Shown piece by piece: positions 8,885 through 57,349 of a stretch of 64,000 nt of DNA. Source of the stretch: Candidatus Cloacimonadota bacterium (GTDB lineage Bacteria > Muiribacteriota > UBA6191); assembly GCA_023954715.1 (NCBI GenBank), contig JAGSHD010000006.1, forward strand, positions 132,515-196,514, written 5' to 3'. Numbering within the stretch: the first letter of the stretch is position 1; each line of letters opens with the position of its first letter. A program made the position numbers and the translations under genes. Below the pieces are notes generated by a model. It saw nothing but the letters and a program-made list of their open reading frames with translations, made no database searches and was not told the DNA's origin.

Positions 8885-9952
8885 ATGAAATTTTTATTTA
8901 ATAACAAAGACACTATTCAAGATATAGATGATAAAAAATGTATTTTTGTGGATGGTACAAGCACTTTGATAGATTATGATAAGGATCTAGAGCTAAGTCA
9001 TTGGATACCGAATCAAACTCCTAAACAGTATAAAGCAGATACCTCTACCCAAGTTTGCTTTAATTTTATAAAAGATGATAAATCAAATAACTATGATTTA
9101 GTAATAAACAACCACGTAGATGCTGATGGTATATTATCTGCTTACGTCATTTTATACCCTGAAATTAGTTTAAAATACGAGTCGATCATCGCAAAAGCCA
9201 CTCTGATGGGAGACTTCTCTGCTTATGGTGATTATGATGTTGCTCATTTCTATATACATTTAGTTGAATGGATAAAAAACTCTCGGGAGTTAAAGTTCAA
9301 CAATCAAGCCATTTTTGAAAAGTGTTTTGAGCATATAAATAAGTACTTTCATAATGAGTACTTCCCCTTTGATACCTTAGTAAAAGACTCTTATGCGAGT
9401 TTAAATGAATCTAGTGATTTACTTGATAGCAAACAAATAATCAGAACCCTTATTCATGACACATTTACCACTTTTTATATCCCGTACTCTGTCTCTATTA
9501 AAAGTAACAAACAAGCAATCTATAAAGCGGGTTTTGACTTTGGGCTAGATACTAGACAACTTTTACCCATGCAATTATTAAATCAACATGATTTTGAACG
9601 ACAAAAACTTATCATCGTAGAAACAATAGACAATCAATATTATTATGATCTATTGCTTCCCGATTACCTCTGGGCAGAGACAAGTACCTTGTATAGACCA
9701 AAGGGAGTACAGTCTACAGACTCTACTAATATTCATATTTTTAATCGTCCAGATTTGACTAAGCTTTGTAATGATCTCAACCAATTAGAGAAAAATGAAG
9801 GCCGATGGGTTTTGGCTGATACTTTTCATCCATTTGCCTCAATCAAAGGTCGTGGGTTTCCTGTTGTATTATCTTTTATGCTAGATGATCAGGTGACTCC
9901 GAGCTCGATTCATCCATCAGAGATAACACAATCCTTGGCGAAGGTACTATGA
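8885..9952 (+). CDS. Hypothetical protein with DHH-like motif I only
   Basis: NNHVDADGILSAY resembles NrnA/RecJ motif I. No DHH motif III found. Confidence 0.4.
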   Translation: MKFLFNNKDTIQDIDDKKCIFVDGTSTLIDYDKDLELSHWIPNQTPKQYKADTSTQVCFNFIKDDKSNNYDLVINNHVDADGILSAYVILYPEISLKYESIIAKATLMGDFSAYGDYDVAHFYIHLVEWIKNSRELKFNNQAIFEKCFEHINKYFHNEYFPFDTLVKDSYASLNESSDLLDSKQIIRTLIHDTFTTFYIPYSVSIKSNKQAIYKAGFDFGLDTRQLLPMQLLNQHDFERQKLIIVETIDNQYYYDLLLPDYLWAETSTLYRPKGVQSTDSTNIHIFNRPDLTKLCNDLNQLEKNEGRWVLADTFHPFASIKGRGFPVVLSFMLDDQVTPSSIHPSEITQSLAKVL

Positions 9953-16596: not shown

Positions 16597-18063
16597 TTAG
16601 AGTCCACCAAAGTCATCTCCAAAATCATCTCCAAAGTCGTCTCCACCAGTTGGATCTTCGTTATCCAATCCACCAGAACTTGTTGATGGTTTGTCCACAC
16701 TAGGATTAAATGATCCAGAGTTTGGTATTCCTCCGCCATTATCAGCTACTAGCTCACCAAAGTCAGTTGTTGCTATACTTTGTTTGACAATTTTAGGTGT
16801 GATTAAAATTACGATTTCTTTAGAACTTGGTTTAATATTTCTACTTGTAAACAAGTGTTTAATAAATGGTAGGTTAGATAAAAACGGAATCTTAGTTTCT
16901 GTTTTTGATTCTGATTCTTCTACAATTCCACCTACTAAGATTTCTTCGTTATCATGTACTTGAAGAGTTGTCTTTAAAGAAGTCTTATCTACAGTTAAGT
17001 TACTACCCTGTAAGTTACCTGTTGATTTTTCTAAATCTAACTCTAATACTAAAAATCCATCGTTATTAATCTGTGGAACAACATTTAAGATTGTACCCAC
17101 ATCTTTTGATTGTGAAGGAGAATCTGCACCTGTTTGAAATGTAAATTCCTTACCAATGTTTAACGTAGCCTTCTGCCCATTCATAGCTATGATTCGAGGT
17201 GAAGCTAGCGTTCTATTATCAGAAGTTGTTTGTAGGGCATTAAACACAGCATTAAAGTATAAGTTTTGTCGGTAGAAATCTCCAAAGCTCATTAATGAAG
17301 CCCCTTCTGTTCCTCCACCTGCATAAGACTGACCATTTTGTAAGGTTCTTAGAGCTTCTGTATATGCTAATACTCCACCGCCACCACCGTTTCCATCAAC
17401 AGCGCCATTGGCAGCTCCGCCTGTTCCCCAATCCCATTTGAATCCTAAACTATCAGAAAAATCAGAAGATACTTCAACGATTTTCACATCTAGCATAACT
17501 TGTGGGACGGGATGATCCAGTTTAGAGATTAAATCATCTACTCTTTTGAACATATCTTCAGTAGTACTTACTACTAAGGCGTTTAATCGATCTTCCACTT
17601 GAACATTCAATTTTGCATTTGCATTTTGACCAAGAAGAGCTGTCAAAATACCTTGAATGTTTTTCGCTTTGGCATATCTCAGTGGATATGTTTTCGTTAA
17701 ACCTTCATCGAAGTTATCTGTGATTGTTTTTTTTGTAGCAATGACTAATGTGTTACCAATTTTTCTTTTGGCGTAATTATTTGTTCTAAGTAGAAGATCT
17801 AAACCTTCTTCCCACGGAACACTCTTTAAGTTCATTGTTACTGATCCCTTGATTTTTGGGTCAATAATCACATTATATTTAGTTTTTTTAATAATAGCTG
17901 ATATTGCAAGACTAATAGGAACCTTTGGAAAGTTCATACTGATTTTTGGTCCCGCATCCTGGTCACTATCAAAATCATCTGCAGCATTCACAGTATTTGA
18001 CATCAAACAAAATGTCAAAAATAATCCAGTACCAACTTTTAATATATCTCTTCTTAGTTTCAT
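16597..18063 (-). CDS. pilQ: Type IV pilus secretin PilQ
   Basis: Start set at the MKLRRDIL ATG, which has an AAGGAG RBS 8 nt upstream. Signal peptide, secretin N domains, C-terminal secretin core (NGQKATLNIG...). C-terminal GDDFGDDFGDDFGGL tail. Confidence 0.85.
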   Translation of the reverse strand: MKLRRDILKVGTGLFLTFCLMSNTVNAADDFDSDQDAGPKISMNFPKVPISLAISAIIKKTKYNVIIDPKIKGSVTMNLKSVPWEEGLDLLLRTNNYAKRKIGNTLVIATKKTITDNFDEGLTKTYPLRYAKAKNIQGILTALLGQNANAKLNVQVEDRLNALVVSTTEDMFKRVDDLISKLDHPVPQVMLDVKIVEVSSDFSDSLGFKWDWGTGGAANGAVDGNGGGGGVLAYTEALRTLQNGQSYAGGGTEGASLMSFGDFYRQNLYFNAVFNALQTTSDNRTLASPRIIAMNGQKATLNIGKEFTFQTGADSPSQSKDVGTILNVVPQINNDGFLVLELDLEKSTGNLQGSNLTVDKTSLKTTLQVHDNEEILVGGIVEESESKTETKIPFLSNLPFIKHLFTSRNIKPSSKEIVILITPKIVKQSIATTDFGELVADNGGGIPNSGSFNPSVDKPSTSSGGLDNEDPTGGDDFGDDFGDDFGGL

Positions 18064-18277
18064 AGCGCATCGCTCCTTTGATTTGCTTCTTACCAATTTC
18101 GACATTTATACAAGTTTATATAACTATTTTGACATACCAAATCTCTGCTTTTTTTTATTTTTTGTAATATTGAAAACAGCTAAAAGCCCCTATAACAAAG
18201 AACAAACAAGTCCCAACAAATACAAACAAAGAAAGAGTTAGTAAAATTAAATCTTACTAACTCTTTCTTTAAATAAA

Positions 18278-18510
18278 TGTAACTATTCAGCTATAATTTT
18301 TCAATTTGCTTACAAAAGTTGATTGCACCTAGGTTTTTGATCATTATTATATTTTGTATTTAAAGATTTTGAAGTGTAGTGGACTACTCGAAAAAAGCTT
18401 TAAAAACAAAAGATGATGATGAGATAAACCGCATACATAAAGCAAAAACTACGAAAAGCTTGTATGCTCCGTAACTTTTATCGAAGAAAACACCTGAATA
18501 ATTACAAATA
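18278..18510. repeat. Intergenic repeat element copy 1 (233 bp, MITE-like, carries ~105-bp internal insertion)
   Basis: Shares TGTAACTATTCAGCTATAATTTTTCAATTT... left module and AAGCAAAAACTACGAAAAGC...CCTGAATAATTACA right module with copies at 21983 and 29383. 13-bp TIR TGTAACTATTCAG / CTGAATAATTACA. AATAAA on both flanks. Confidence 0.7.
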
Positions 18511-18526
18511 AATTATGTATTAATTT

Positions 18527-18904
18527 TTATTGAATGATCGACGTCTCTCGTTTTGAAGCTTTTATATGAAAGAACACAACCTTATCCTCATCAATTTGAA
18601 GAACTTTATAAACCCCTGGTTTGCTATCTCCCTCTTCAATAAGAGTTTGATGCCCTTTGTAGTTTATTATGGCCACCCGTGAACCTTCAACCCCTGTTAT
18701 ACCCAGTGTTTTTATTGACAATGGTGATATAACTTTTGGGATAGGTTTAATCTCACGACGGATATGAAGATTGCAATTAGTTTTTTTAGCTTTAGGTTGA
18801 ATCAATTTTCTAAAAACATCATAATAAGGTTTTTGTACTTCTTGTGAAAATCCCATACCAATACTGGTAAACATTAACATTGATAAGATCTTTTTCATAA
18901 GCAC
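18527..18904 (-). CDS. pilP: PilP-like pilus assembly lipoprotein, paralog 2
   Basis: Signal peptide. C-terminal beta domain LGITGVEGSRVAIINYKG...GDSKPGVYKVLQIDEDKVVF. Position between pilO and pilQ. Confidence 0.65.
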   Translation of the reverse strand: MLMKKILSMLMFTSIGMGFSQEVQKPYYDVFRKLIQPKAKKTNCNLHIRREIKPIPKVISPLSIKTLGITGVEGSRVAIINYKGHQTLIEEGDSKPGVYKVLQIDEDKVVFFHIKASKRETSIIQ

Positions 18905-18915
18905 ATCCCTTTTAA

Positions 18916-19293
18916 TTATTGAATCTTAGATATCTCTCTTTTTGAAGCTTTAATATGCATAAAGACAACCTTATCTTCATCGATCTGGATCACCTTATAG
19001 ACACCGGGCTTACTATCGCCCTCTTCTACTAGATCTTGGCTACCCTTGAAGCTAATAATAGCTACTCGAGCACCTTCTTCACCAGTAATGCCTAAAATTT
19101 TGATGCCTAATGGTGGAATCGTTGGTTTTTTTGCACGAACAGTTTTTTTTCGTCTTACGGCTTTACGTTTAGCTTTCGGCTTAGGCTGAATCAACTTTCT
19201 AAAAAAATCAAAATAAGGTTTTTCTATTCCGGCAGAGTATGTACTCGTACTAGATACAGTAAACGCTATTATTAGAATTATAATTTTATACAT
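18916..19293 (-). CDS. pilP: PilP-like pilus assembly lipoprotein, paralog 1
   Basis: Near-identical C-terminal half to the adjacent paralog. Lys/Arg-rich linker. Confidence 0.65.
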   Translation of the reverse strand: MYKIIILIIAFTVSSTSTYSAGIEKPYFDFFRKLIQPKPKAKRKAVRRKKTVRAKKPTIPPLGIKILGITGEEGARVAIISFKGSQDLVEEGDSKPGVYKVIQIDEDKVVFMHIKASKREISKIQ

Positions 19294-19378
19294 TTTGACC
19301 TCGATATTTTTATTTTAGAAGATACTTATACAAGAAACAATGGAGACTTGTAGTATTTTTTATTATTTAAGATATTAA

Positions 19379-20047
19379 TTAGTTTTCGTATTGAGTGATT
19401 TTTCCACGATCTACCATGATGATCTTTCCTTCAAACTGTGCTCTCATTTTTGGAAAAGTAGTGCTACCAGAATATGCTGGACTCGGTATCTTTTTACCAG
19501 CTAAATCTTTTAGAGTTACTTTTTTTGTAATCAACTTACTCAATCTTGGAAGCTTATATCCTCTTCCTCCACCGCCACCTAATCTCAATCCAGAGTCCGC
19601 AAAATTTAAAATCTTTCTACTTTCTACTCTAGTAAAGAAATCATACAACTGAAAGTAGGTTCCAGATATACTAAACTCTAATGGGATCTCAATAAATTTA
19701 GAACGAGTTAAGCGAGGATTAATCCGGATCGTTTTCAACTCTATTCCTGAATCCTGTGCATCATTTTCTACGTCATTCAAAAATTTACCAACATCTCTAC
19801 CTTTTCCTTTTTCTTTTAGAAAAGTTACGATTTCAGCTCGAACATCCTTAATTTGCTTTTCGATTTTTTTAAGACTTCGCTTTAATTTCTTACCTTTAGA
19901 TCGCTGACTCTTTAGTTTTCTCATTTCAGTATCAACAGCTTGAATCTGCTCGTCTAATGGCTGTTTATATTCCAAAATCCAAACACCTGCTGTAACAATT
20001 GAAATCAGCACCATTCCAAATACATAACTAACTACTTTTACAATCAT
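19379..20047 (-). CDS. pilO: Type IV pilus assembly protein PilO
   Basis: Single N-terminal TM, coiled coil, position after pilN. Confidence 0.7.
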   Translation of the reverse strand: MIVKVVSYVFGMVLISIVTAGVWILEYKQPLDEQIQAVDTEMRKLKSQRSKGKKLKRSLKKIEKQIKDVRAEIVTFLKEKGKGRDVGKFLNDVENDAQDSGIELKTIRINPRLTRSKFIEIPLEFSISGTYFQLYDFFTRVESRKILNFADSGLRLGGGGGRGYKLPRLSKLITKKVTLKDLAGKKIPSPAYSGSTTFPKMRAQFEGKIIMVDRGKITQYEN

Positions 20048-20049
20048 TT

Positions 20050-20655
20050 CTAATCCTTACGGATAACAAAAGTCATTTCAAACTTTGTTACTTTTTTTCG
20101 ATCGATAGTATCTTGTACCATTGATGATAAAGAAATATTTTCTACAATATGAGTTGCTTCTCTCAAGATTTTTACAAAATCCGTTACACCTTTTGATGTG
20201 GACTTACGAGGTTGACCAGATACATTGCTCTGACCAGGTATTACTGTTTCCATGGAGGTACCCGTTAAAGATACTTGTCCATCATTATCAATATTTAGTT
20301 GAACAATCCAAACCGTTTTAGCTCGTATAACAAACTCTTCAAAATTATGTAAAACCTTAGTCCATGAGCCTGTGTTTTTGGATAATACCTGTTGGTATTC
20401 AGCCAAATCACCTTTCACTCGATTTAAATTATTGATTAATCGCTTTTGCTTTTTTCGAACCCTTTTGAACTCATTTACCTCTCTTTTGACAGGCTCAAGT
20501 TTTCTTTTATATTCTTCAAGTTCTAAATCTGTTTGCTCAGCTTTATAAGCTAAGCCAGCACCATTGACACAGATCCATAATGCAATAATGATTCCACCAA
20601 CCGGAATTGGAACCGATTTCTTTTTCTTTTCGGTGAGTAAATTGACTTTAATCAT
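20050..20655 (-). CDS. pilN: Type IV pilus assembly protein PilN
   Basis: MIKVNLL N-terminus (PilN signature), TM segment. 4-nt overlap with pilM. Confidence 0.75.
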   Translation of the reverse strand: MIKVNLLTEKKKKSVPIPVGGIIIALWICVNGAGLAYKAEQTDLELEEYKRKLEPVKREVNEFKRVRKKQKRLINNLNRVKGDLAEYQQVLSKNTGSWTKVLHNFEEFVIRAKTVWIVQLNIDNDGQVSLTGTSMETVIPGQSNVSGQPRKSTSKGVTDFVKILREATHIVENISLSSMVQDTIDRKKVTKFEMTFVIRKD

Positions 20656-21818
20656 ATCTCTTGATCCTCAGCAAATCCCCTCATAGCTAGTCCTATGGCG
20701 GTAACGTATTGATGCATATTTTCTTCAAACATTTCTTCTTGGTCCATGTCTCTTGGATAGCCATAAGCAGGTTCACCTAAACGAACCTTTACAGATAGCT
20801 CATTTTCTAATAGAACTTCAATCCCTTTAATGCGAGAGGATCCACCAGTCAAAATAACTTCATGGATAATTGGCTCTCTATGCTGAGCTTTATAAAAATC
20901 AAATGATCTTCTGATCTCTACTGCAATTTCTTCGATTGTCGCTTGTACTAGCTCTTCAAAGTCTTGATCTTCTTGGCCTTCATTTAACTGCAAAGATTTT
21001 TCGATTTTAATGCTCTCTGCTTCTTCAAATGAGACCTTATAAACACCTTTTACGATTTCAGTGATACTGTTACCAGAAATAGGCACATTTCTAGAAAATC
21101 GTAGAATATTTCCTTTAAGAACATTTATGATAGTGGATCGAGCTCCAATACTTACTATGGCAACTACTTTATCTTCGATCTCTTTATCTTCGACCTCTGT
21201 ATCCATAGAGTCAATCCCAGCTGTCTCTTGCTCTCCATCTTCAAAAGACGGTTCACTTGTTACACCCGGAACTAAACACCCTTCAAGAGCGTTGATAATT
21301 GCTAGTGAGTCAATATCTAAAGCATCAAGGTTTTTTACCCCAACCGACTTAAAAATACTTACTAGACTTTCCACATGCTCTTTTTGAGATACAGCTAACA
21401 AACATAAAATCCGTTGCATCCCATCCTGTTCAACTCTAGCTAATTTCGCATAAGAGATATTTACTGTCTCCAAAGGATATGGTACATATTGCTCTGCTTC
21501 TCCATCAATAGCGTATTTTAATTCCTCATCCATCATCTCAGGAAAAGGAATAAATCTTAATATTGTTACTTGAGATGACAAACTAGTAAATACCTGATTA
21601 AACTTTAATCCATATTCTTTTTTTATATTTTTAAGAATTTGTATAATTGCATTTGGGTCTTGTAAAGTTCCTTCAACAAATGTTCCCTCTGGATATCTTT
21701 CAACACCATGTTTAACAATTGTTGGCCCTTGCTTTGTCTTTTTTACCTGTATAAATTTGAGAGAGGAAGAGCCTATATCAATTCCTAGTGAGAATTTTGG
21801 GGGACCAAATGAAAACAT
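20652..21818 (-). CDS. pilM: Type IV pilus assembly ATPase-fold protein PilM
   Basis: Actin-like fold motifs LGIDIGSSSLKF and VILTGGSS. Acidic insertion. Confidence 0.85.
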   Translation of the reverse strand: MFSFGPPKFSLGIDIGSSSLKFIQVKKTKQGPTIVKHGVERYPEGTFVEGTLQDPNAIIQILKNIKKEYGLKFNQVFTSLSSQVTILRFIPFPEMMDEELKYAIDGEAEQYVPYPLETVNISYAKLARVEQDGMQRILCLLAVSQKEHVESLVSIFKSVGVKNLDALDIDSLAIINALEGCLVPGVTSEPSFEDGEQETAGIDSMDTEVEDKEIEDKVVAIVSIGARSTIINVLKGNILRFSRNVPISGNSITEIVKGVYKVSFEEAESIKIEKSLQLNEGQEDQDFEELVQATIEEIAVEIRRSFDFYKAQHREPIIHEVILTGGSSRIKGIEVLLENELSVKVRLGEPAYGYPRDMDQEEMFEENMHQYVTAIGLAMRGFAEDQEI

Positions 21819-21982
21819 TTCTCTACCTTTCCAACTTATCTAAATGTATTTTAATCATTATAAAATTACTTTGATCTCAGTTTAACTAAATTAAACATTA
21901 ATAATAAAACCTGTTTTTAACACAAATTTCATAGTTAAACGATCTAATCTATCTATTTATTTATGTTCAATATAAAAATAGT

Positions 21983-22117
21983 TGTAAATGTTCACTTATA
22001 ATTTTTCATTTTTTACAAAGGTTGATTATACTTAGGTGTATCAACATAGCAAAAACTTCAAAAAATTTGTACGCTCCACGCCTTTTATCGAAGAGACCAC
22101 CTGAATAACTACAAATA
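21983..22117. repeat. Intergenic repeat element copy 2 (135 bp)
   Basis: Same modules and TIR (TGTAAATGTTCAC / CTGAATAACTACA). AATAGT on both flanks. Upstream of pilM. Confidence 0.65.
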
Positions 22118-22298
22118 GTTTTTATACGCTACTTGAACATATCGTCAAAAAAGGTGAACAAGTTACTGCCTTTGACTAATTATAATGTATCTAATTGTAA
22201 AGGTAAATGGTTTTACTCCATCTAAAATTTGCTTATATAGCAAGATAAGTGTTGTTCATTAGTAGTTAATGACAAGTAAAATAGATTTTCAAGTTGAT

Positions 22299-23489
22299 TT
22301 AATAGTACGTTTTAACGATATCTACATCACTATAATAATATTGCAAGATCTGCTTAAAGCTCTTTTTTTGTTTAGCCAGGCCCTTAGCACCCCATTGACA
22401 AAGGCCAACCCCATGCCCAAAGCCTTGTCCTTTCAAAGATAATACTCTTGAGTTAGATGGCTTACTAAATCTAGACAAAATATCCATAATAGCTGATTCA
22501 TCTGGGTTAGTAATCTTAACAGAACTGCTCTCTTGTTGAAAAGCCATAGTACTTCTCATAGTAGAAGGACCCATTAACTTTCTCAATTTAGCTCCAGATA
22601 AAGAGATTTTACCTGACGAATGATTTACAATAAGAGTTTTTAATCTTCCATCTTGTGAGTTTTTCACCTGTAAATTATCTATATTTTTTAGCTTTTTACC
22701 GTCAAGTCGGAGTAGATTTTTTAGTTTTTCATAGGGGATATCTAACTCCCACTTGTAGTTTTTATAGGCATTACACCATTTACATGACTTAGACTTTAAA
22801 AACTCCACTTTTTTACCTAACCAATGTCTAGAGTCTAACGTAGACCCTCCACAAGCTGAATGGTAATACGTTGAGATGAGCTCTTTTTTGTAAGTGATTA
22901 CCAATCCTCTAGTATTATCCACTACCTTAATCGCTAGTGGGTGTTCACTGGATACACCAGCATAAACCTGAGATCGAACATCCGCAGTTAACCCAAATCC
23001 ATAAGCATCTCGAAATTTATCAATATTTTTCATAGCGTAGGTCCGAGCTACAACTGCTTGTGCTTTTAGGGCTTCAATCGGAGAAGTGATTAGCATCTCG
23101 GCCTTTATAACTGAATATAAATAAGATTCAATGTCCACTTTGTTCACAATAGTCAATTTTCCGAATTTATCTTCAAAAATCTCAATTGTACCTCTATACG
23201 GTTTACCATTTACTACGATATTTTGTCGTTTGAAAGGCTTGATGTATATCCTGTGATAATCTACCTTCTTTAAAAAACCAAAGCCTCGTTGCGTTAACCT
23301 TATTTTTATGGGTGTAGCATTCCATCGAGTAAATATTTTCTTCTTATTTGCATCTAAGTTAAAAACTTGAAAACCATATTTTGCACCGATGCTTACTTTT
23401 TTTTGACCTTGTAAAATACCAACGTCAAGCATTGGATTTATGGCAAAACTAAAAGAACAAAGTAAAAACTGTAGAACAAACCACTTCAA
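22299..23489 (-). CDS. SpoIID/LytB-domain protein (amidase enhancer family)
   Basis: SPIEALKAQAVVARTYA signature. Signal peptide. Confidence 0.8.
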   Translation of the reverse strand: MKWFVLQFLLCSFSFAINPMLDVGILQGQKKVSIGAKYGFQVFNLDANKKKIFTRWNATPIKIRLTQRGFGFLKKVDYHRIYIKPFKRQNIVVNGKPYRGTIEIFEDKFGKLTIVNKVDIESYLYSVIKAEMLITSPIEALKAQAVVARTYAMKNIDKFRDAYGFGLTADVRSQVYAGVSSEHPLAIKVVDNTRGLVITYKKELISTYYHSACGGSTLDSRHWLGKKVEFLKSKSCKWCNAYKNYKWELDIPYEKLKNLLRLDGKKLKNIDNLQVKNSQDGRLKTLIVNHSSGKISLSGAKLRKLMGPSTMRSTMAFQQESSSVKITNPDESAIMDILSRFSKPSNSRVLSLKGQGFGHGVGLCQWGAKGLAKQKKSFKQILQYYYSDVDIVKTYY

Positions 23490-24784
23490 GATAGAAGCTC
23501 CTTAATATCTTTAAAGGTTACTAAAACAATTAGAGATAAAACACACAGTACTCCAAAAAGGTTTACATATCCTTCGATAATATCATCAAAGGCATCTTCT
23601 TGCTTACCCATTACATTTCCAAATTTATTGATACAATCCTTAACAACAATGATCATAATTCGGCCGCCATCCAAACCAGGAATCGGAACTAAATTAAAGA
23701 GACCAATGGAAATACTAATTTTGGCCACTAAAAATAGAAAGTCTAGTAAACCACGCTCAACACTTTGAGACACAACATTTGCAATGGCCACAGGCCCACC
23801 AATATTTTCAGGAGCTTTGAAGTTTCTGATCATATTAACAAACATGTTGGATAGCTCTCCAGCAAATTGTGTAGACCAGTTTATAGTTGACTTAAATGAA
23901 CGTTTTACCGAATCATTGAATGGATACACTATTAATTTGCCATCTAAAAAGAATGGACGAATTTGAATTCCAATCGTTCCTTGTTTACTTGGCACGACAA
24001 CTAAAACTTTCTTTTCTACATCTTGAGAGATAGACACTTTTATCTCAGTTGGGTTCAATTTTTCAAGATGCTTTAAAGCTACTTCTTTTGTATCATACAC
24101 CACTGATTTTTTGTCTTTTATTGTTTCTATCTTTATAAAACTTTTATCTACATATAGCTTGTCTAAATAATTTAAAAGACCAGCATGATCATCAAAACTT
24201 TTATAATTGGTTCGTCTTTGAACTTCTACTTCTACATCTTTTGTTGCAAAGCTTGAAATTAAAAATCGTCCTTGTTCAAAGTCTTCAATTTTCTTTTTAT
24301 TAATGCTAAGTAAAACATCATTTTCTTGAAAACCAGCAGTTGCCGCTGGAGCATCCTTAAGAACATTTACCACTTGAAGTGTAGTTGCCGGAAGACCGTG
24401 CCAATGATGGATATAAGCTAAAATGGCAAATGTACCCACTAGATTCATGGCTGGACCCGCTAGTAAAATTGCTATTTTTTGAAATATATTTTTTCTTTGG
24501 AAACTTCTATTGCCTGGGTCGGGTTTGTCATCATCCGGGTCGAGCCCATCTTCTTGGGCTAACATTACAAAGCCACCAATAGGCAAAGCACGAATAGAGT
24601 ACTCGGTCTCGCCAACTGTTTTAGCTATTAGTTTAGTTGAACCCATACCGATAGCAAAAGCGTCTACTCTCACATCACACCATTTAGCCACAACAAAATG
24701 CCCCAACTCATGAATGAAAGCAACTAATCCAATAACTAAACTGAACCAAAAAAGCTTGTATGCCAATGTAAGTAAAAATTCCAT
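23486..24784 (-). CDS. rseP: RIP zinc metalloprotease RseP (site-2 protease), active-site intact
   Basis: HELGHF, a PDZ domain, and NLVPIPGLDGG third-ligand motif. Confidence 0.9.
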   Translation of the reverse strand: MEFLLTLAYKLFWFSLVIGLVAFIHELGHFVVAKWCDVRVDAFAIGMGSTKLIAKTVGETEYSIRALPIGGFVMLAQEDGLDPDDDKPDPGNRSFQRKNIFQKIAILLAGPAMNLVGTFAILAYIHHWHGLPATTLQVVNVLKDAPAATAGFQENDVLLSINKKKIEDFEQGRFLISSFATKDVEVEVQRRTNYKSFDDHAGLLNYLDKLYVDKSFIKIETIKDKKSVVYDTKEVALKHLEKLNPTEIKVSISQDVEKKVLVVVPSKQGTIGIQIRPFFLDGKLIVYPFNDSVKRSFKSTINWSTQFAGELSNMFVNMIRNFKAPENIGGPVAIANVVSQSVERGLLDFLFLVAKISISIGLFNLVPIPGLDGGRIMIIVVKDCINKFGNVMGKQEDAFDDIIEGYVNLFGVLCVLSLIVLVTFKDIKELLS

Positions 24785-25019
24785 ATAATTCCGTTCGTGG
24801 TTTGATTTGTGCTAAATCTAAGCCCAATTTTATTGATGCTAAATAACTTTCTGAGCGAGGGTAAAATTTAACAATCTAAAAGTCTATAGTCTATATTACA
24901 TCGTTAAAATCAGTATCTTTAATAACAATAATACCTAAATCCACTGTAAAGAAACATGGAAGATTTAAAATAAGCCGCTCTGCTAGCTTTAAACGTTGAT
25001 TAGAATCACTAATTAAGAA

Positions 25020-26294
25020 TTACAATTGGGCGATGACCAACATGTTCTGAAAGATCATTAATAAAATCAAAAATACAAAAGCAATCAAATAAAACCAATC
25101 AAGCCATATTTCTGACTCCAAGCTTATGGGCTCCTCTTTGTAGTTAAAAAGTAGTGCCAACTTATTGATAAACATTCTGAGAAACATAACAAAAACTTTG
25201 CCGCCAGCTAGTTTAGGGATCGGAAAAAAGCTCAACCATCCAATGGTTAGAGAAACCATTGCAAAAAGTCGAAAAAAGTCAAAAGCAGTCATTTCTGAAA
25301 ACTCTTCAATAAACTGTTTTAACTCCCACGGAACATTAACCGGCAGTTCACGCTTCTTTAAAAAACTATGTATCATTGAAAATGCTTGAGTTAAAAACTC
25401 TTTGCTCAAAATATGAGTAAAATCGAAGGCTGTTTTAAAGGATTTTGCTAAACCTAGCTCTAGAGATTTTTCATTTAATGAATATGGTTTAATACCTATA
25501 CCGACTTTTCCTTCGTTGGTAGACAAGACATCAATATTTAAAATTTTAGAACTCTGAGAAAAATGAACTTCGATATTATTTGGATTCATGGAGCGCAAGT
25601 GTCGAATGGCTGGCTCTTTAGCATAAAACATTAGATAACTTTCAACACCTTTTTGAAATATTTTAATATAACTCTTGTGCTGATAAGTTTTAGTTAAGTA
25701 AGTTTTTGCTTTTTCATAATTGTCAAAAACTAAGTAGTCGCCTTTTCTTTCTATAGTAAAACTAACTTTGGTTTGAACTAATTTAGATATAGACTGACGT
25801 CCTTCATCAAAACGTTTTATATCCTCGTTATTGACCTTAAGGATAATATCTCCACGTTGAAAACCACTTTTGTGCGCTGGCATTCCAGGAATTGTATTGG
25901 TTACTTGCATCGTGCTTGGTGTATCTCCAAACATATAAAACGTAAATCCAAGTACCACAAAAGTAAAGAATATGGAAGAAATAGGCCCAGCACAGATTAG
26001 GATCAATTTCTTTAAGGGGGAAATCTCTGAGTTAACTACCTGAGGATCATTTGAGCATTTAGGTGAAAACTCTAAACTTCCACCTACAGGAAAAGAACAG
26101 ATAACAAAAAGTACTTCGCCAAAACTTTTGCTTAAAAGAATCGAACTACCCACACCTATTTTTATCTTAGTGAGTTTTATATTTAAAAACTTTGAAACTA
26201 AATATTTACCTAGGGCAAAAAATAAGGCTACTCCATCAACAAGTATAATAAACCAAAATATCTTTTTAAGAAAAAGTAATACTAAATCCACCAC
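25020..26294 (-). CDS. RseP paralog lacking all catalytic residues (pseudo-protease), PDZ retained
   Basis: Same architecture as rseP, but HELGH is replaced by FALGK and LDGG by LAGG. Confidence 0.8.
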   Translation of the reverse strand: MVDLVLLFLKKIFWFIILVDGVALFFALGKYLVSKFLNIKLTKIKIGVGSSILLSKSFGEVLFVICSFPVGGSLEFSPKCSNDPQVVNSEISPLKKLILICAGPISSIFFTFVVLGFTFYMFGDTPSTMQVTNTIPGMPAHKSGFQRGDIILKVNNEDIKRFDEGRQSISKLVQTKVSFTIERKGDYLVFDNYEKAKTYLTKTYQHKSYIKIFQKGVESYLMFYAKEPAIRHLRSMNPNNIEVHFSQSSKILNIDVLSTNEGKVGIGIKPYSLNEKSLELGLAKSFKTAFDFTHILSKEFLTQAFSMIHSFLKKRELPVNVPWELKQFIEEFSEMTAFDFFRLFAMVSLTIGWLSFFPIPKLAGGKVFVMFLRMFINKLALLFNYKEEPISLESEIWLDWFYLIAFVFLILLMIFQNMLVIAQL

Positions 26295-26303
26295 GCCCCA
26301 ATT

Positions 26304-27110
26304 TTAAAATATTAATAACAAGTATAAGGCACATAAAGCACCAGCTGTTACAGAATCAAATCGATCCAACACGCCCCCATGACCCGGAATAATCCACCCA
26401 GAGTCTTTAACGCTTAGACATCTTTTGAAACACGATTCTAACAGATCGCCTATCTGTCCCGCAATACCAATAATAAATAAACATAACAAGAAATAGTCTT
26501 TGAAAATAAATCCAAAATTTTGATGAACAGTATATAACACTCCCATCATAACTAAAATTCCAATGATAGACCCTTCCCAAGTTTTCTTTGGACTCAAATA
26601 TTGACTAAACTTATGCTTGCCAAATGCTCTTCCTCCAAAGTAGGCGAAAGTGTCTTGTAACCACATAATACAAAACAATAACAAAATTAAACTCAAGGAC
26701 GATTTTACATTTAACAGGAGTACAATCATTGGGGAAAAAAAGAAAACAACGTAGGAGAACATCAAAAACCCACGACCAAAGTCTTCAAAAAATTCATCTT
26801 TATTTTGTTCAGTATAATTAAAGATAGCCAAAATCAAAAACAGAACTGGGGATAAAATCAGCACATCTAAATCATAAATCTTCTTCATGGATTCAAATTT
26901 TTGTAACAAGATCAAGAGACTTGCTAAATGGATGCACATACAAAAAATATATACTCTACCTAGTACCTTAAATTTAGTCATTGAATATGCTTCTTGGTGC
27001 GCGAAGGCTGTTACTAGTAGCCAAAAAGCTCCAAAATATAGTGCCCCAGCCTTTAGTGATAATAGAGTCAGGGCCACCACTAAAAATCCACCAATTGCTC
27101 TAATAATCAT
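26304..27110 (-). CDS. cdsA: Phosphatidate cytidylyltransferase
   Basis: C-terminal SGWIIPGHGGVLDRFDS signature. Confidence 0.9.
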   Translation of the reverse strand: MIIRAIGGFLVVALTLLSLKAGALYFGAFWLLVTAFAHQEAYSMTKFKVLGRVYIFCMCIHLASLLILLQKFESMKKIYDLDVLILSPVLFLILAIFNYTEQNKDEFFEDFGRGFLMFSYVVFFFSPMIVLLLNVKSSLSLILLLFCIMWLQDTFAYFGGRAFGKHKFSQYLSPKKTWEGSIIGILVMMGVLYTVHQNFGFIFKDYFLLCLFIIGIAGQIGDLLESCFKRCLSVKDSGWIIPGHGGVLDRFDSVTAGALCALYLLLIF

Positions 27111-27883
27111 AATCCACCAAATTTTCTATGGCGGTTTTGAAACTCTAAAATGGATTCAAATAGATGAATTTCACGAAAATCTGGCCAATGGACATCGGTG
27201 AAGTAAAACTCAGAATAGGCGTTTTCCCACAGCATAAAGTTAGATAGTCGATTTTCACCACTTGTTCTAATCATTAGTTCTGGCTCTGGCATAAACCCTG
27301 TATACAACTTTTCGGTAATTAGCTCTTCTGTCACCGAGTTCACGTCCAAAGTACCAGACTGTACTTCAGTAGCAATTTCTTTAGTAACTCTTGCAATATC
27401 TGCTCTGCCTGAGTAATTCAAAGCTAAGTTCATACAGATTTTTTTGTTATCTTTGGTACGTTCACTCGCTTGAGCAAATTCTTGCTGAATTTTTGCACTC
27501 ATCTTGGTTAAATCACCGATGACGTTGATTCGAACACCTTGAGCACTCAATTCATCAATGTACTTATTTAAGGAAGATGAAAATAGCCCCATTAGCATGG
27601 ATACTTCAGACTCTGTTCTTTTCCAGTTTTCTGTAGAAAAAGCATAAAATGTTACGTAATCTACAGGTATTTTACCGCATAACTCTACTATAGCATGTAT
27701 AGAGTCTACCCCTTTTTTATGCCCAAAAGTTCGCGGTTTTCCTTGTGCTTTCGCCCATCGACCGTTGCCATCCATAATGATAGCAAGATGTTTAGGACAG
27801 TTCTCCCAATCAATTTGAGAAAACACCTTATCTTCTGCTTCATTCAATTCAACGTCTAGTCTGATTTGTTCTTCTATTGACAT
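27107..27883 (-). CDS. uppS: Undecaprenyl diphosphate synthase
   Basis: HLAIIMDGNGRWA motif. Confidence 0.93.
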   Translation of the reverse strand: MSIEEQIRLDVELNEAEDKVFSQIDWENCPKHLAIIMDGNGRWAKAQGKPRTFGHKKGVDSIHAIVELCGKIPVDYVTFYAFSTENWKRTESEVSMLMGLFSSSLNKYIDELSAQGVRINVIGDLTKMSAKIQQEFAQASERTKDNKKICMNLALNYSGRADIARVTKEIATEVQSGTLDVNSVTEELITEKLYTGFMPEPELMIRTSGENRLSNFMLWENAYSEFYFTDVHWPDFREIHLFESILEFQNRHRKFGGL

Positions 27884-28049
27884 TCCCCACCGTCCAAATA
27901 AAGTAATAAAGCCTCATTATCAAAGCTCTTAGTACATTATGCACCAAGTTTATCTAACCTTGAAATGAGACTTTGTAAGATGAGCACGAATCTAACTTAA
28001 TAATCGATAGAATTAAGTTAAAAAACATACCCGAAATGCAATCCGAGGA

Positions 28050-28610
28050 CTACACTTCCATAATATCTTTTTCTTTGTTTGCTACTAGTGCATCAATCTT
28101 AACGATATGACCGTCTGTAGCATCTTGAATTTGCTTTTGATACTCTTTGTTATCATCTTCAGTTATAGTTTTATCCTTAACTAATTTCTTTAAAGAGTTA
28201 TTGCTATCTCTTCTAATATTTCTTACAGATACTTTAGAGTCTTCACCACGGCTCTTTGCGATTTTAACCATGTCTCGTCTTCTATCTTCTGTCATATCTG
28301 GCATATTCAATCGAATCACTCTACCATCGTTGGCTGGTGTGATCCCAAGATCTGATGCTAAAATTGCCTTTTCAATAGCAGAAATTAAAGACGTATCCCA
28401 AGGCTGAATAGCTAACACTCTTGGCTCAGGTACAGAGATTGATGCCACACCCTTTAATGGAGTCTTTGCTCCATAGCTGTCAACGCTGATTCTGTCTACA
28501 AGCATTGGATTTGCTCGACCAGTTCGAATTGATTGTAAGCTTGTTTGTAGTGAGTCTACTGTTTTATCCATTTTGTCTTCAGAGTCTAATAAAATTTCAT
28601 CTGGTTCCAT
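28050..28610 (-). CDS. frr: Ribosome recycling factor
   Basis: Full-length RRF similarity. Confidence 0.93.
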   Translation of the reverse strand: MEPDEILLDSEDKMDKTVDSLQTSLQSIRTGRANPMLVDRISVDSYGAKTPLKGVASISVPEPRVLAIQPWDTSLISAIEKAILASDLGITPANDGRVIRLNMPDMTEDRRRDMVKIAKSRGEDSKVSVRNIRRDSNNSLKKLVKDKTITEDDNKEYQKQIQDATDGHIVKIDALVANKEKDIMEV

Positions 28611-28619
28611 GTTTCACCC

Positions 28620-29318
28620 CTATTTAATTAAAGTTCCTATGTTTTCACCATTTACTAATTTCAGAATATTACCTTTTTCAAATATATTCAAGACCCTAAT
28701 AGGAATGGAATTATCCATACAAATAGCAATTGCCGCTGTATCCATCACTTTTAAGCCATCTTTTAAAATATCTTTGTAGTTTATTTCTTCATATAATTTG
28801 GCGTCTGGGTTTTTTTCTGGATCACAATCATAAACCCCATTTACTTTTGTTGCTTTTATCAGAAGATCGATACCTAATTCAGCTGATCGTAATGCCGCTG
28901 CTGTATCTGTTGTAAAGAAAGGTCTACCCGTTCCACCTGCACAAATGACAACTCCGCCATCTTTCATGAACTTTTGTGCTTTTTTAACGTGAAAAAGCTC
29001 AACATATTCTTCTAATCGAAAAGGTGTCATTACCATTGCTTTTAACCCATTCGCTTCAAATATATTTTGCATAGCTACAGCATTCATGATAGTAGCCAAC
29101 ATACCCATAAAGTCACCAGAAACACGATTATAACCTTCTTGTTCCCCAGATATTCCTCTAAATATGTTTCCGCCACCAATAACTACTGCAACTTCTTTTC
29201 CTTTTGCTATCATTTCTTTGACTTGATTGCAAATGGAGACTGTAGTAGTAGCATCAACGCCCCTGCCAGATTTATCGCCTAATGCTTCCCCACTAAGCTT
29301 TAACATTATTCTTTTCAT
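28620..29318 (-). CDS. pyrH: UMP kinase
   Basis: MKRIMLKLSGEALG N-terminus, amino acid kinase fold. Confidence 0.93.
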   Translation of the reverse strand: MKRIMLKLSGEALGDKSGRGVDATTTVSICNQVKEMIAKGKEVAVVIGGGNIFRGISGEQEGYNRVSGDFMGMLATIMNAVAMQNIFEANGLKAMVMTPFRLEEYVELFHVKKAQKFMKDGGVVICAGGTGRPFFTTDTAAALRSAELGIDLLIKATKVNGVYDCDPEKNPDAKLYEEINYKDILKDGLKVMDTAAIAICMDNSIPIRVLNIFEKGNILKLVNGENIGTLIK

Positions 29319-29382
29319 TTATTCTCCTTTAAGAGAGTAAGTCATTCAAAGTATTTTGCACTATGATGAACTGCAAGCTACT

Positions 29383-29516
29383 TTGTAACTATTCAGCTAT
29401 AATTTTTCAATTTCTTTGCAAAGGCCGATTATACCTAGGTACATCAATAAAGCAAAAACTACGAAAAGCCTGTATGACCCTCAACTTTTGTCCAAGAGAC
29501 CATCTGAACAATTACG
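29383..29516. repeat. Intergenic repeat element copy 3 (134 bp)
   Basis: First 28 nt identical to copy 1. Right module CATCTGAACAATTACG. Lies between tsf and pyrH. Confidence 0.65.
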
Positions 29517-29611
29517 TTACTTTAAACAAAAGTAAAGAACATAGTAGTCTTTACATCTTTACCAAATAATTTTGACAAAAAAAAAGACCCTTTCGGGTCT
29601 TTTTAAATCAA

Positions 29612-30529
29612 CTATTGCATTTTTGCAACTTCTTCTGCGAAATCTTCAACTTTTTTCTCGATACCTTCACCAAGAACAAATCTCTTAAATCGGTTGATTG
29701 ATACATCAGTACCTAATTTAGTACTTACATCTTTAACCAATTGATTGATTTTAGTTTTAGTTTCTTTTACAAATGGTTGCTCAAGCAAACAGATTTCTCC
29801 GTAGTACTTATTAACTTTACCAAGAGCAATTTTTTCAAGCATTTCTTCTTTTTTGCCTTGCTCTCTCATTTGATCTTTATAAATAGCTACTTCTTTATCG
29901 ATTTCTTCACTTGGAACTTCATCACGCTTTAAATAAGCTGGAGCTGCTGCTGCAATGTGCATAGCGATATCTTGATAAAAATCAACAAATACATCGTTAC
30001 TTACGCAAGAAGTATCAGCTACTCCTAATTCAACCATAACACCGATGCTACCACCAGCGTGGATATAAGTATGAACATAACCACTGTCTACAGAATACTT
30101 CACAAATCTTCTTGGTGTAATTTTTTCACCAATTTTAGCTACTTGCTCAGTAATTACTTGCTCAACTTTAACGCCGTTAAGCTCGCTAGACATAAGACCA
30201 TCTACGTTTTCTACATCAGAGCTTTCAATCAACTTAGTTAAGTCAGAAGCTAACGACTGAAACGCTGGGTTTTTACCAACAAAGTCAGTTTCACAGTTTA
30301 ACTCAAACAATGCACCAGTAGATTTATCTTCACCAACATAAGCACAAATTGTACCTTCTGCTGCAATTCTACCTGCTTTTTTACCAGATGCTGCTAATCC
30401 TTTTGTTCTCAAAAAGTCAACCGCAGCTTCCATGTCACCATCGCATTCTACTAATGCTTTTTTACAATCCATCATTCCAGCTTGAGTTTTTTCTCTTAAC
30501 GCCTTAACGTCCTTTGCAGAAATTGCCAT
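29612..30529 (-). CDS. tsf: Elongation factor Ts
   Basis: MAISAKDVKALREKTQAGMMDCKKAL N-terminus. Confidence 0.95.
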   Translation of the reverse strand: MAISAKDVKALREKTQAGMMDCKKALVECDGDMEAAVDFLRTKGLAASGKKAGRIAAEGTICAYVGEDKSTGALFELNCETDFVGKNPAFQSLASDLTKLIESSDVENVDGLMSSELNGVKVEQVITEQVAKIGEKITPRRFVKYSVDSGYVHTYIHAGGSIGVMVELGVADTSCVSNDVFVDFYQDIAMHIAAAAPAYLKRDEVPSEEIDKEVAIYKDQMREQGKKEEMLEKIALGKVNKYYGEICLLEQPFVKETKTKINQLVKDVSTKLGTDVSINRFKRFVLGEGIEKKVEDFAEEVAKMQ

Positions 30530-31697: not shown

Positions 31698-33503
31698 ATG
31701 TTTAATTATTTGAATAGGATTACTTTTATTAGATCCAATCGGCTAGTCATATCAAGTCTTTTCATAGCCCTTATTTTTATTGGCTGCGGTGGAAAAGGTT
31801 TAGAAGAACTATCTGATTCTGCTACTACAATCAAATCTTCCACCCTTATATTTGGCTCAGTATATAATAAAGATGAAGATCATGTAGGGCGTAATGTTCA
31901 AATCTCCGTCAATCCCGGTTTTGCTAAGACAGTCAGTGATGATAACGGTAACTTCTTTTTTGATGATTTAGCTAAAGGTAGCTACACCATCATAGCTTCT
32001 TCAGGAAACTACGTAACATCAACTCATATTTCAACAGTTTCGACTGACTTTTTGAGTGTAGATCTTAATTTTGGTAATGATAGTCGAAACGCAAATGATA
32101 TAAACTTTTTTGAAAACAATAGTCTTTTGACAAAAAAGATTGCTGATGACTCTACTTTACCCGTATATAATTCACTGTTAAGTTTTCTTCCTATAAATTT
32201 TTCATATATCGATAGTATTGATTGGAGCCCTGTTACCGAAAACCTAATTTTACTATCTGCGTCTACATTACCGCAATCGGACCCTAATAGTAGACTAGAT
32301 ATCTATCTTTTTAATATCACCACTAAAGAGCTAAAGCTTTTAGTACAAGATACTATAAATAATAATTCAGCTAGTGACCCCTCTTTTTCACCAACAGGAA
32401 CTAAGTTTGCCTATCTTTTGGATAAACGAATATTTCATGCGTCGATTACTAATCTGGTAACCAACCCTGTTGAATTGATTCGAAACCAATCCCTCCTATT
32501 TAGAACGCCTAATGGTCATCTATTTTTAAAACAAGACTACCTAAACGAAGAAGCAGGATTGGTATATGTAGACACTCAAAAACCAGCTACAACTGTTCCT
32601 ACTGTTGGTAATCTACATAAAACATATCCAACGATCAATCGGCCAGAAAGCGCTGTATTTTTCAACCGTTTAAATACTTATTTTAATGGATTATGCCAAC
32701 AAAACTTAAATAACTTTGCTTTTTGCCAAGATGTTACTATTCAGACATGTAACGCTGCCACCCCTATTACAGACCATACCCTACCACCACTTACTTGCCC
32801 AACCTTCTATCCGCAAGACCTTAGTGTCAGTGGTCAAGTCAATGCATCCACACTATTTGATGCTACAAACTTTCCGGCTGATTGTCCTGTTGAATTTAAA
32901 AAACCAGTATGGTCACCGAAAGGAAACTCTATCGCTTTTTTAGCTAAACCTAAAGGATGTACTGGAGCCCGCCCTACAGTGTGTGGTAGAACCTGTGACG
33001 ACACAAATTTAGAAGTCTTTGTATCTTTCATAGACTATCAAAGAGATAACATTGCTGATCAAACTAACTATTATAGTACCAATGATTTTGAGCAATTGGA
33101 CAAATTTTCTGTCATGCAAATTACCCAAAACTCTCTAGAAGAGGATAATATCTCTTGGGACCCTTTGGGACATACAGTTCTATACGATCAAATATCTGTT
33201 TTCAATAATATTTCTACCTATTTTTTAATCGCATCTAGTCCTAGCGAAAGAGGATTGTTTTCACGTACTTTACTTCTTAACGGAAAGCTTCCTCATCAAG
33301 CTACGGTGAGCTACGATGGTGCCAAAATTGCATATATTTCAAACAATATTACTGCTGAAAATAGCTTTGGGTTTCCTCAAGTTTTTGTTGGAGACTTTAA
33401 AGGCACAGTCAGCAATGCAAAACCAACTACTAAGTATAATACTACCAAAGATCTACGTAGACCTCTTTTTTACAAGATTTTCCCAGATGCATATAGTCAA
33501 TAG
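31698..33503 (+). CDS. Lipoprotein with carboxypeptidase-regulatory-like domain and TolB-like (PD40) beta-propeller
   Basis: Lipobox IGCGG. DDNGNFFFDDLAKGSYTI. Repeated WSP/FSPtG propeller motifs. Confidence 0.65.
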   Translation: MFNYLNRITFIRSNRLVISSLFIALIFIGCGGKGLEELSDSATTIKSSTLIFGSVYNKDEDHVGRNVQISVNPGFAKTVSDDNGNFFFDDLAKGSYTIIASSGNYVTSTHISTVSTDFLSVDLNFGNDSRNANDINFFENNSLLTKKIADDSTLPVYNSLLSFLPINFSYIDSIDWSPVTENLILLSASTLPQSDPNSRLDIYLFNITTKELKLLVQDTINNNSASDPSFSPTGTKFAYLLDKRIFHASITNLVTNPVELIRNQSLLFRTPNGHLFLKQDYLNEEAGLVYVDTQKPATTVPTVGNLHKTYPTINRPESAVFFNRLNTYFNGLCQQNLNNFAFCQDVTIQTCNAATPITDHTLPPLTCPTFYPQDLSVSGQVNASTLFDATNFPADCPVEFKKPVWSPKGNSIAFLAKPKGCTGARPTVCGRTCDDTNLEVFVSFIDYQRDNIADQTNYYSTNDFEQLDKFSVMQITQNSLEEDNISWDPLGHTVLYDQISVFNNISTYFLIASSPSERGLFSRTLLLNGKLPHQATVSYDGAKIAYISNNITAENSFGFPQVFVGDFKGTVSNAKPTTKYNTTKDLRRPLFYKIFPDAYSQ

Positions 33504-57275: not shown

Positions 57276-57349
57276 CAGGGCGAGAGTGATTCGAACACTC
57301 AACACCTGGATTTGGAATCCAGTGCTCTAACCGTTGGAGCTACCGCCCT
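57276..57349 (-). tRNA. trnW: tRNA-Trp (anticodon CCA)
   Basis: Cloverleaf folded by hand. 7-bp acceptor stem, D-arm, anticodon loop TTCCAAA, T-loop TTCGAAT. Canonical position between rpmG and secE. Confidence 0.88.

Follow-up and report, generated by a model that had tools for sequence, protein, structure and literature searches.

Correia elements (NEMIS) of Neisseria and ERIC elements of enterobacteria are repeats of 100-160 bp with paired ends, which occupy transcribed intergenic regions, are co-transcribed with their neighbours and can carry parts of promoters or alter mRNA processing. Correia elements have inverted repeats of 26 bp and a TA duplication. Among insertion sequences, IS481 itself and some other members of its family prefer NCTAGN as target. 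IS481 duplicates 6 bp on insertion (PMC3053399), and ISLxc2, another member of the IS481 family, combines an inverted repeat beginning with TGTGTTTCTCAG with a 6-bp duplication (PMC2516522, Table 1). TGT ends and a 6-bp duplication are also found in ISLxc1, which belongs to the IS21 family (PMC2516522, Table 1). A general definition of MITEs is available (PMC9330008, PMC3852290), and no paper describing a MITE in Cloacimonadota was found in the literature searched.

Three homologous non-coding repeats, lying between genes and all in one orientation, were identified within 11 kb of the 64-kb stretch of a Cloacimonadota MAG analysed here (the window), whose encoded Tsf is 100% identical to MCO4782396.1. 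The copies are 77-83% identical to one another (17-23% diverged), and their flanks are unrelated. They form a repeat family with inverted ends, flanking duplications, no coding capacity and empty sites in relatives, and are very probably copies of a non-autonomous DNA transposon, namely a bacterial MITE of ~133 bp with one long form of 229 bp. An earlier model-made reading of the same DNA (the sequence-only reading) had called them MITE-like, a proposal supported by direct repeats that exceed chance expectation and by the empty sites in relatives. Like bacterial MITEs in general, the repeats are short (131-229 bp) and lack coding capacity, carry terminal inverted repeats and a target-site duplication of fixed length, lie between genes in several copies and are absent from the orthologous sites of relatives; the difference is that here there is no known parent insertion sequence and only three copies were seen. 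The size range, the pairing ends and the intergenic sites in transcribed regions are shared with Correia and ERIC elements, but an inverted repeat of 13 bp and a duplication of 6 bp set the copies apart from Correia elements.

The family was retrieved with an nhmmer profile built from the three copies, which recovered the two short copies at E = 3.6e-41 and 8.9e-39 and matched the two halves of copy 1 separately (E = 2.6e-19 and 3.2e-14). All other matches in the 64-kb window had E >= 0.95, and thus no fourth copy was detected there. A repeat search of the window delineated the two conserved modules named in the sequence-only reading. The family of three copies postulated by the sequence-only reading is therefore real, with profile E-values from 1e-14 to 1e-41 and agreement of the repeat search. 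Its three loci were right, whereas its boundaries needed correction on the basis of the inverted-repeat ends, as 4 nt of the flanking direct repeat had been included at the ends of copies 1 and 2 and 1 nt of flank at the start of copy 3. The corrected coordinates are given in Table 1.

Table 1. Positions in the window of the three copies, their flanking direct repeats and the adjoining host signals
Feature	Coordinates	Strand	Basis
Copy 1, long form, 229 bp, TGTAACTATTCAG to CTGAATAATTACA	18278..18506		inverted-repeat ends, profile match
Copy 1 internal segment, long imperfect palindrome	18335..18430		reverse-complement self-match, E = 8e-5
Left direct repeat of copy 1 (target-site duplication), AATAAA	18272..18277		
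Right direct repeat of copy 1, AATAAA	18507..18512		
Host terminator-like hairpin adjoining copy 1, outside the element, kept in a relative; marks the insertion point	18227..18271	-	
Copy 2, 131 bp, spoIID-pilM spacer, pilM leader	21983..22113		profile match, inverted-repeat ends
Left direct repeat of copy 2, AATAGT	21977..21982		
Right direct repeat of copy 2, AATAGT	22114..22119		
Host promoter-like site TTTACC-17-TATAAT upstream of copy 2, outside the element; kept in L010, L012 and L002	22179..22207	-	
Copy 3, 133 bp, between the tsf terminator and pyrH	29384..29516		profile match, inverted-repeat ends
Left flanking repeat of copy 3, CTACTT; 5/6 match to the right repeat	29378..29383		
Right flanking repeat of copy 3, TTACTT	29517..29522		
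Host tsf intrinsic terminator, outside the element; kept in all relatives	29581..29604	-	

TGTAA opens and TTAC(A/G) closes every copy, and the two ends form an imperfect terminal inverted repeat of 13 bp (consensus TGTAAYTRTTCAG). The pair TGTAACTATTCAG / CTGAATAATTACA matches at 12 of 13 positions in copy 1, the same count as reported before, and is imperfect in copies 2 and 3, with 9/13 and 10/13 matching positions, respectively. Copies 1 and 3 have an identical left end, as previously noticed, although it extends over 30 nt and not 28 nt. Direct repeats of 6 bp flank the copies, with 6/6 matches at copies 1 and 2 and 5/6 at copy 3, and their sequence differs at each site, so that the target-site duplications proposed earlier were found at all three copies. 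Over a segment of 131 bp, a 6/6 match of the flanks occurs at 0.04% of the window positions, or 0.19% with AT-rich sequence on both sides; for 5/6 or more, the values are 0.7% and 1.8%, respectively. The joint chance of the three flanking repeats is ~7e-8, with no correction for the choice of register. The reservation of the sequence-only reading that these repeats might have arisen by chance in AT-rich DNA was thus tested, and they lie far beyond chance.

The long form of copy 1 is due to a segment of 96 nt, unique in the window, rather than the ~105 bp estimated when this extra segment was first noticed. When it is removed, copy 1 is 133 nt long and aligns without gap to copy 3. The sole ORF in the copies, of 68 aa (29363-29569, in copy 3), has its frame broken in copy 1, where stop codons occur, and shifted in copy 2 by a 2-nt deletion, which bears out the earlier statement that the element is not coding.

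Orthologous regions with conserved gene order and 73-89% nucleotide identity to the window were available from four related lineages, L002/L008 (GCA_002402105.1), L010, L011/L012 and L013 (partial), and the element profile had no match in any of them. The spoIID-pilM spacer measures 480 bp in the window versus 217, 347 and 339 bp in relatives, and the tsf-pyrH spacer 293 bp versus 62, 136 and 106 bp. L010, L012 and L002 lack the element at the site of copy 2; without the element and one repeat, the spacer in the window is 343 bp long, and a stretch of 126 nt spanning the insertion point aligns without gap to L010. Removal of the element and one repeat at copy 1 likewise leaves no gap at the junction with L008, in which the stop codon is followed by ~20 nt and then by the conserved hairpin. 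At copy 3, the element is absent from the tsf-pyrH spacer of L002, L010, L011 and the partial L013, and this spacer is too diverged from the relatives for a clean junction; around copy 3, and partly around copy 2, the element accounts for only part of the difference between the spacer and those of the relatives. The search for empty sites suggested by the sequence-only reading therefore showed the element to be absent from the orthologous spacers, with gap-free junctions at two of the three sites (copy 1 versus L008 and copy 2 versus L010). As these relatives are different species (73-89% identity) and not strains, no presence/absence polymorphism within a population was seen.

The host signals adjoining each insertion are conserved in the relatives. 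Copy 2 lies ~65 nt downstream of a conserved promoter-like site, whereas copy 1 separates the stop codon of a 125-aa gene (18527) from the conserved terminator-like hairpin that precedes pilQ, i.e. in the 3' region of the pilMNO operon and not simply upstream of pilQ. The earlier assignment of all copies to the 5' regions of minus-strand operons thus holds for copy 2, in the pilM leader, and copy 3, before pyrH, but not for copy 1.

An alternative is a regulatory cassette of the host that works in cis, as a common promoter/operator or as a structure in the mRNA leader, was copied to three operons and acts on the expression of pilM, pilQ and pyrH. The copies are oriented like the downstream genes, and their gene-proximal ends read TTGAAA-17-TACATT in copy 1, ATGAAA-17-TACAAC in copy 2 and TTGAAA-17-TACAAA in copy 3. 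However, the promoter scan listed that of copy 1 only (9/12 matches), those of copies 2 and 3 being read by eye; the -10-like hexamer is half flank, with its final T missing in two of the three copies, and promoter-like matches in the region do not exceed those in shuffled sequence (36 found versus 46 expected). The shared orientation is not significant for three copies (p = 0.25), and a pilQ promoter would not be expected where copy 1 lies, ahead of a terminator-like hairpin. In copy 3, folding of the minus-strand RNA surpasses that of shuffled sequences (z = -3.1), but neither strand of copy 2 gives such a signal (z = -0.6 and -0.9). The spacer of only 62 nt in L002 leaves pyrH no room for a promoter of its own, which would fit a cassette, but the element is missing from all three orthologous spacers, and the relatives keep their own promoter-like and terminator signals. 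Finally, duplications of 6 bp at the flanks are unexpected for a host cassette. This explanation, which the sequence-only reading had left as an option, is therefore improbable.

About equally improbable are dead relics, i.e. internally deleted remnants of an insertion sequence now extinct in the genome, with no partner transposase and no present mobility. The divergence of 17-23% between copies and the decay of the inverted repeats of copies 2 and 3 to 9/13 and 10/13 are compatible with such a state, as are the lack of a transposase in the scanned ORFs of the window and of related sequences in the collections searched. On the other hand, the 30-nt identical left end of copies 1 and 3 and the near-perfect duplications argue against great age. 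Relics would in any case be a special case of the MITE explanation, with a shared origin and a different present state. Plus-strand small RNA genes antisense to the operons, with the invariant TATAAT at element positions 15-20 as -10 box, are the least likely explanation: TATAATTTTTCA is invariant in the three copies, and the promoter scan found TTTAAA-18-TATAAT on the plus strand of copy 1 (18268-18297), but the -35 position falls in the non-homologous flank and is promoter-like in copy 1 only, the right end of no copy has a plus-strand terminator-like site, the plus-strand folds of copies 2 and 3 are at the level of shuffled sequences (z = -0.6 and -0.7), no Rfam match was found at the gathering threshold or at E <= 10, and chance accounts for the longest invariant run, which measures 12 nt (permutation p = 0.39). 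The structured non-coding RNA that had been put forward as another option finds no support either, given the same Rfam and invariant-block results and a covariation term of +0.12 in the alignment fold, in which both partners differ in 3 of the 41 predicted pairs, three sequences affording little power.

Returning to the non-autonomous transposon, a DDE-type transposase encoded elsewhere in the genome would act in trans, recognising the TG...CA termini and the 13-bp inverted repeat. It would cut AT-rich intergenic targets with a stagger of 6 bp and insert the element there, and repair of the stagger would then generate the 6-bp direct repeats. The insertions probably took place in the lineage of the window after its split from the sampled relatives. 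The copies occupy tolerated sites, copy 1 in 3' untranslated sequence ahead of a terminator, copy 2 in the pilM leader and copy 3 in the spacer between tsf and pyrH. No transposase was detected among the 20 ORFs of the window scanned with Pfam. The exact left-end pattern gave only chance matches in genome, metagenome and viral collections, so that no element with matching ends was found there, and BLAST of the copies against plasmids and phages detected no similarity. In the absence of copies outside the window in the collections searched, the family so far comprises three copies within 11 kb of a single MAG. The TGT-initial ends and the 6-bp duplication are shared with the IS481 family but are not exclusive to it; the targets AATAAA, AATAGT and YTACTT differ from the NCTAGN of IS481, and no rve/DDE transposase was found here. 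Because ISLxc1 of the IS21 family has the same two features, IS481 is not the sole family to consider, and judging from the ends and duplications both IS481 and IS21 are candidate families for the mobilising transposase. Given the divergence of 17-23% between copies and the decayed inverted repeats of copies 2 and 3, it is doubtful that the family is still mobile.

The three copies are probably co-transcribed with the minus-strand genes and may possibly affect the expression of pilM, pilQ and pyrH. This might happen through pairing of the two ends into an RNA stem, or through a weak TTGAAA-17-TACAnn promoter that points outward from the downstream end. It is unlikely, if slightly less so than the cassette or the relics, that the element is a mobile regulatory module rather than a neutral passenger, rewiring the expression of the type IV pilus operon and pyrH in this lineage. 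If it were, the paired ends would be an RNA stem controlling processing or stability, or the gene-proximal end would be a promoter, and the rewiring would proceed via MITEs of a family so far undescribed in Cloacimonadota. On this unlikely reading, the 229-bp form could be a composite with a second palindromic module nested in it.

The three copies represent a previously undescribed family of miniature transposable elements in an uncultured Cloacimonadota lineage, and as such an ordinary kind of bacterial feature. Its recognition allows the three spacers to be flagged as recent insertions in the annotation of the MAG, the consensus ends and the 6-bp duplication provide a handle in the search for the missing transposase, and the copies may serve as a marker for strain or lineage typing. 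A new biological question would arise only if they alter the expression of the pilus genes or pyrH.

The three intergenic segments make up a dispersed repeat family, as the sequence-only reading had proposed, and this was confirmed by alignment, by profile search and by an independent repeat search of the window, which returned the same two shared modules as the alignment. An nhmmer profile built from the three segments recovered copy 1 from the 64-kb window as two halves (E = 2.6e-19 and 3.2e-14), and the other two copies with E values of 3.6e-41 and 8.9e-39. All remaining matches had E values of at least 0.95, so that the window contains no further copy. A candidate fourth copy or solo end, with one mismatch to the inverted repeat, was rejected, as it lies inside an ORF and about 3.4 such matches are expected by chance. 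The boundaries of the copies were set by their inverted-repeat ends, TGTAAYTRTTCAG.

Copies of the repeat element and other features of the window
Feature	Coordinates	Strand	Length	Inverted-repeat matches	Flanking 6-bp direct repeats
Copy 1	18278-18506		229 bp	12/13	AATAAA / AATAAA
Segment found only in copy 1	18335-18430		96 nt
Copy 2	21983-22113		131 bp	9/13	AATAGT / AATAGT
Copy 3	29384-29516		133 bp	10/13	CTACTT / TTACTT
Rejected solo end	32732-32744
Terminator-like hairpin before pilQ	18227-18271	minus
Tandem paralogous genes after pilO	18527-18904; 18916-19293	minus	125 aa each
Promoter-like TTTACC-17-TATAAT	22207-22179
Tandem M50 (RseP-like) peptidase genes	23486-24784; 25020-26294	minus
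tsf-pyrH spacer	29319-29611		293 bp
tsf intrinsic terminator	29604-29581
tRNA gene	57276-57349	minus
Overlapping ORFs	57643-58851; 58848-60080	minus	402 and 410 aa

Without its additional segment, copy 1 is 133 nt long and aligns to copy 3 without gaps. The pairwise identities among the copies are 80.2%, 82.7% and 77.1%, with 93 of 133 columns invariant, and every copy runs from TGTAA to TTAC(A/G), its 13-nt ends forming a terminal inverted repeat. The segment specific to copy 1 is a long imperfect palindrome that matches its own reverse complement (E = 8e-5) and does not occur a second time in the window. Just outside each copy lies a pair of direct repeats. At the spacing of the element, a chance match of all six flanking bases was found at 0.04% of the window positions (0.19% when only AT-rich flanks are counted), and a match of at least five of six at 0.7% (1.8% for AT-rich flanks). 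The joint chance of the three flanking repeats is approximately 7e-8, and it stays far below chance expectation even if the choice of register is generously allowed for.

The window was compared with four related lineages: GCA_002402105.1 (L002 and L008; Tsf 87% identical, aligned DNA about 73-74%), a Logan contig (L010; about 79% identical), ENA contigs (L011 and L012; 75-83%) and the closest relative, a JGI contig (L013, from 3300053785; 89% across tsf). The Tsf of the window itself matches at 100% identity MCO4782396.1, a protein encoded on a 280-kb contig of a Candidatus Cloacimonadota MAG. Gene order is unchanged in all four lineages, and the element profile gave zero matches in any of them. 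The tandem M50 genes, which carry PDZ domains, are kept as a pair in all relatives. In L013 (83-1000), the tsf call consists of two ORFs (128 and 141 aa), which points to either a frameshift or an error in the assembly.

Empty sites were looked for in these relatives, and two of the three loci align through the junction. The spoIID-pilM spacer, which holds copy 2, measures 480 bp in the window versus 217 bp in L002, 347 bp in L010 and 339 bp in L012; after removal of the element and one repeat it measures 343 bp, and the sequence to either side of the insertion point, 126 nt in all, aligns gap-free with L010 (window, GCGTATAAAA-ACTATT-TTTATATTG; L010, GCGTGTATTA-GGTGTA-TTTGTATAA). At the site of copy 1, the stop codon and the same hairpin are 19 nt apart in L008 and about 25 nt apart in the window without copy 1 and one repeat, and the two sequences align through the junction. 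L002, L010 and L011 lack copy 3, as do the 113 nt available past the terminator in L013, but the junction is not clean because the post-terminator spacer is highly variable in every lineage. Outside the terminator, close relatives differ greatly in the length and the sequence of this tsf-pyrH spacer (62 bp in L002, 106 bp in L011, 136 bp in L010 and >113 nt in L013), and that of the window minus the element is still about 90 nt longer than in L002. The host signal adjoining each insertion, i.e. the hairpin, the promoter-like site or the terminator, is kept in relatives. As the elements are absent at the orthologous sites, they are lineage-specific insertions into pre-existing spacers.

All genes between ~9.9 and 31.6 kb are on the minus strand. 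In gene direction, a 125-aa gene ends with its stop codon 20 nt ahead of copy 1 (14 nt and then the 6-bp repeat), and the other repeat of copy 1 is followed after 6 nt by the terminator-like hairpin and then by pilQ. Copy 2, in the spoIID-pilM spacer, has the promoter-like site upstream of it, and copy 3 lies approximately 65 nt past the tsf terminator and 65 nt ahead of the pyrH start codon. Neither the shared orientation of the three copies (p = 0.25) nor the fact that they fall within 11 kb of the 64-kb window (p about 0.08 for three points) was retained as a significant signal.

Several features of the pilO-pilQ region were observed in addition. The hairpin, a 20-bp stem followed by TTTGTTTGT, is kept at about 80% in L008 (about 9796-9850) and is probably a terminator or attenuator of the pilMNO unit. 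The two tandem 125-aa genes are 71% identical over 200 nt, and the duplication directly adjoins copy 1; L008 has a single such gene between pilO and pilQ. The member of the pair that was scanned (18527-18904) belongs to no Pfam family. The longest pilQ ORF starts at 18105, whereas conservation with the relative begins at an ATG at 18063 (MKLRRD...) that has a conserved AAAGGAG ahead of it, so that the true pilQ start is probably located there, 14 codons further in.

Besides a mobile element, a shared cis-regulatory cassette or a structured ncRNA had been considered. The gene-proximal ends carry the motifs TTGAAA-17-TACATT in copy 1, ATGAAA-17-TACAAC in copy 2 and TTGAAA-17-TACAAA in copy 3. 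The flank supplies half of the -10 hexamer, the threshold of the promoter scan was reached by copy 1 alone, and the region contains fewer promoter-like matches (36) than shuffled sequence (46). To judge from these motifs, the gene-proximal end may be a weak outward promoter at best. Conserved functional blocks inside the element were rejected, since the longest invariant run, TATAATTTTTCA (12 nt), is as expected at the identity of the copies (permutation p = 0.39) and thus gives no sign of internal constraint.

The ncRNA reading found no support. Neither an Rfam search of the whole window at the gathering threshold nor one of 18000-30000 at E <= 10 returned anything on the copies. Folding the three minus-strand copies to a consensus gave a covariation term of +0.12, with both partners changed in only 3 of the 41 predicted pairs, although three sequences give little power. 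Owing to the palindrome inside it, copy 1 folds strongly on either strand (z = -5.1 and -5.2), and copy 3 folds on the minus strand (z = -3.1), mostly via the terminal stem. Folding of copy 2 on both strands and of copy 3 on the plus strand was unremarkable. A strand-specific RNA structure was therefore rejected, as copy 1 folds equally on both strands and copy 2 on neither. The only Rfam match of the window at the gathering threshold is a single tRNA gene (59.3 bits). A coding role of the 68-aa ORF in copy 3 was dismissed, its frame being interrupted by stop codons in copy 1 and shifted in copy 2, as noted before.

The inverted ends, the 6-bp duplications and the empty sites support the proposal of a MITE-like non-autonomous transposable element, and the three copies are likely MITEs. 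This combination of features corresponds to the definition of such elements (PMC9330008, PMC3852290). The element would be cut and joined by a DDE transposase acting in trans, given its TG...CA ends, short inverted repeat, 6-bp duplications that differ in sequence, lack of an ORF and empty sites. The inverted repeat of IS481 begins TGTGAAGATTCAA and would match that of this element at 9 of 13 positions. IS481 duplicates 6 bp on insertion (PMC3053399), and so does ISLxc2, whose inverted repeat reads TGTGTTTCTCAG... (PMC2516522, Table 1); for an IS21-family element, the same table likewise lists TGT ends and a duplication of 6 bp. The likeness to the IS481 family consists of the TGT... ends and the 6-bp duplication, whereas the NCTAGN target of IS481 differs from the AT-rich targets seen here. 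An IS481-family transposase may be the source, and so may one of the IS21 family, a member of which has both of these features.

A Pfam scan of 20 window ORFs revealed no transposase. The overlapping 402-aa and 410-aa ORFs, which adjoin the tRNA, nusG and a ribosomal-protein cluster, had no Pfam match at E <= 0.001. A 26-nt left-end pattern (21 specified bases) revealed no true copy in species-representative genomes or JGI metagenomes; its matches (one in genome contigs, two in metagenome contigs) are attributed to chance, since each covers the first 28-29 nt only, i.e. the pattern plus 2-3 nt. Neither the left-end nor the right-end pattern matched viral contigs, and BLAST in distant mode gave no match of copy 1 to plasmids or of copy 3 to phages. 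The family is thus known from this window only, and a literature search for MITEs in Cloacimonetes turned up no paper.

The 17-23% divergence between the copies and the eroded inverted repeats of copies 2 and 3 suggest that the insertions may not be very recent, or may derive from already diverged source copies. Any regulatory effect on the pilus or pyrH genes is speculative. Elements of this kind are well known; the family itself is new, and its host phylum has been little studied.
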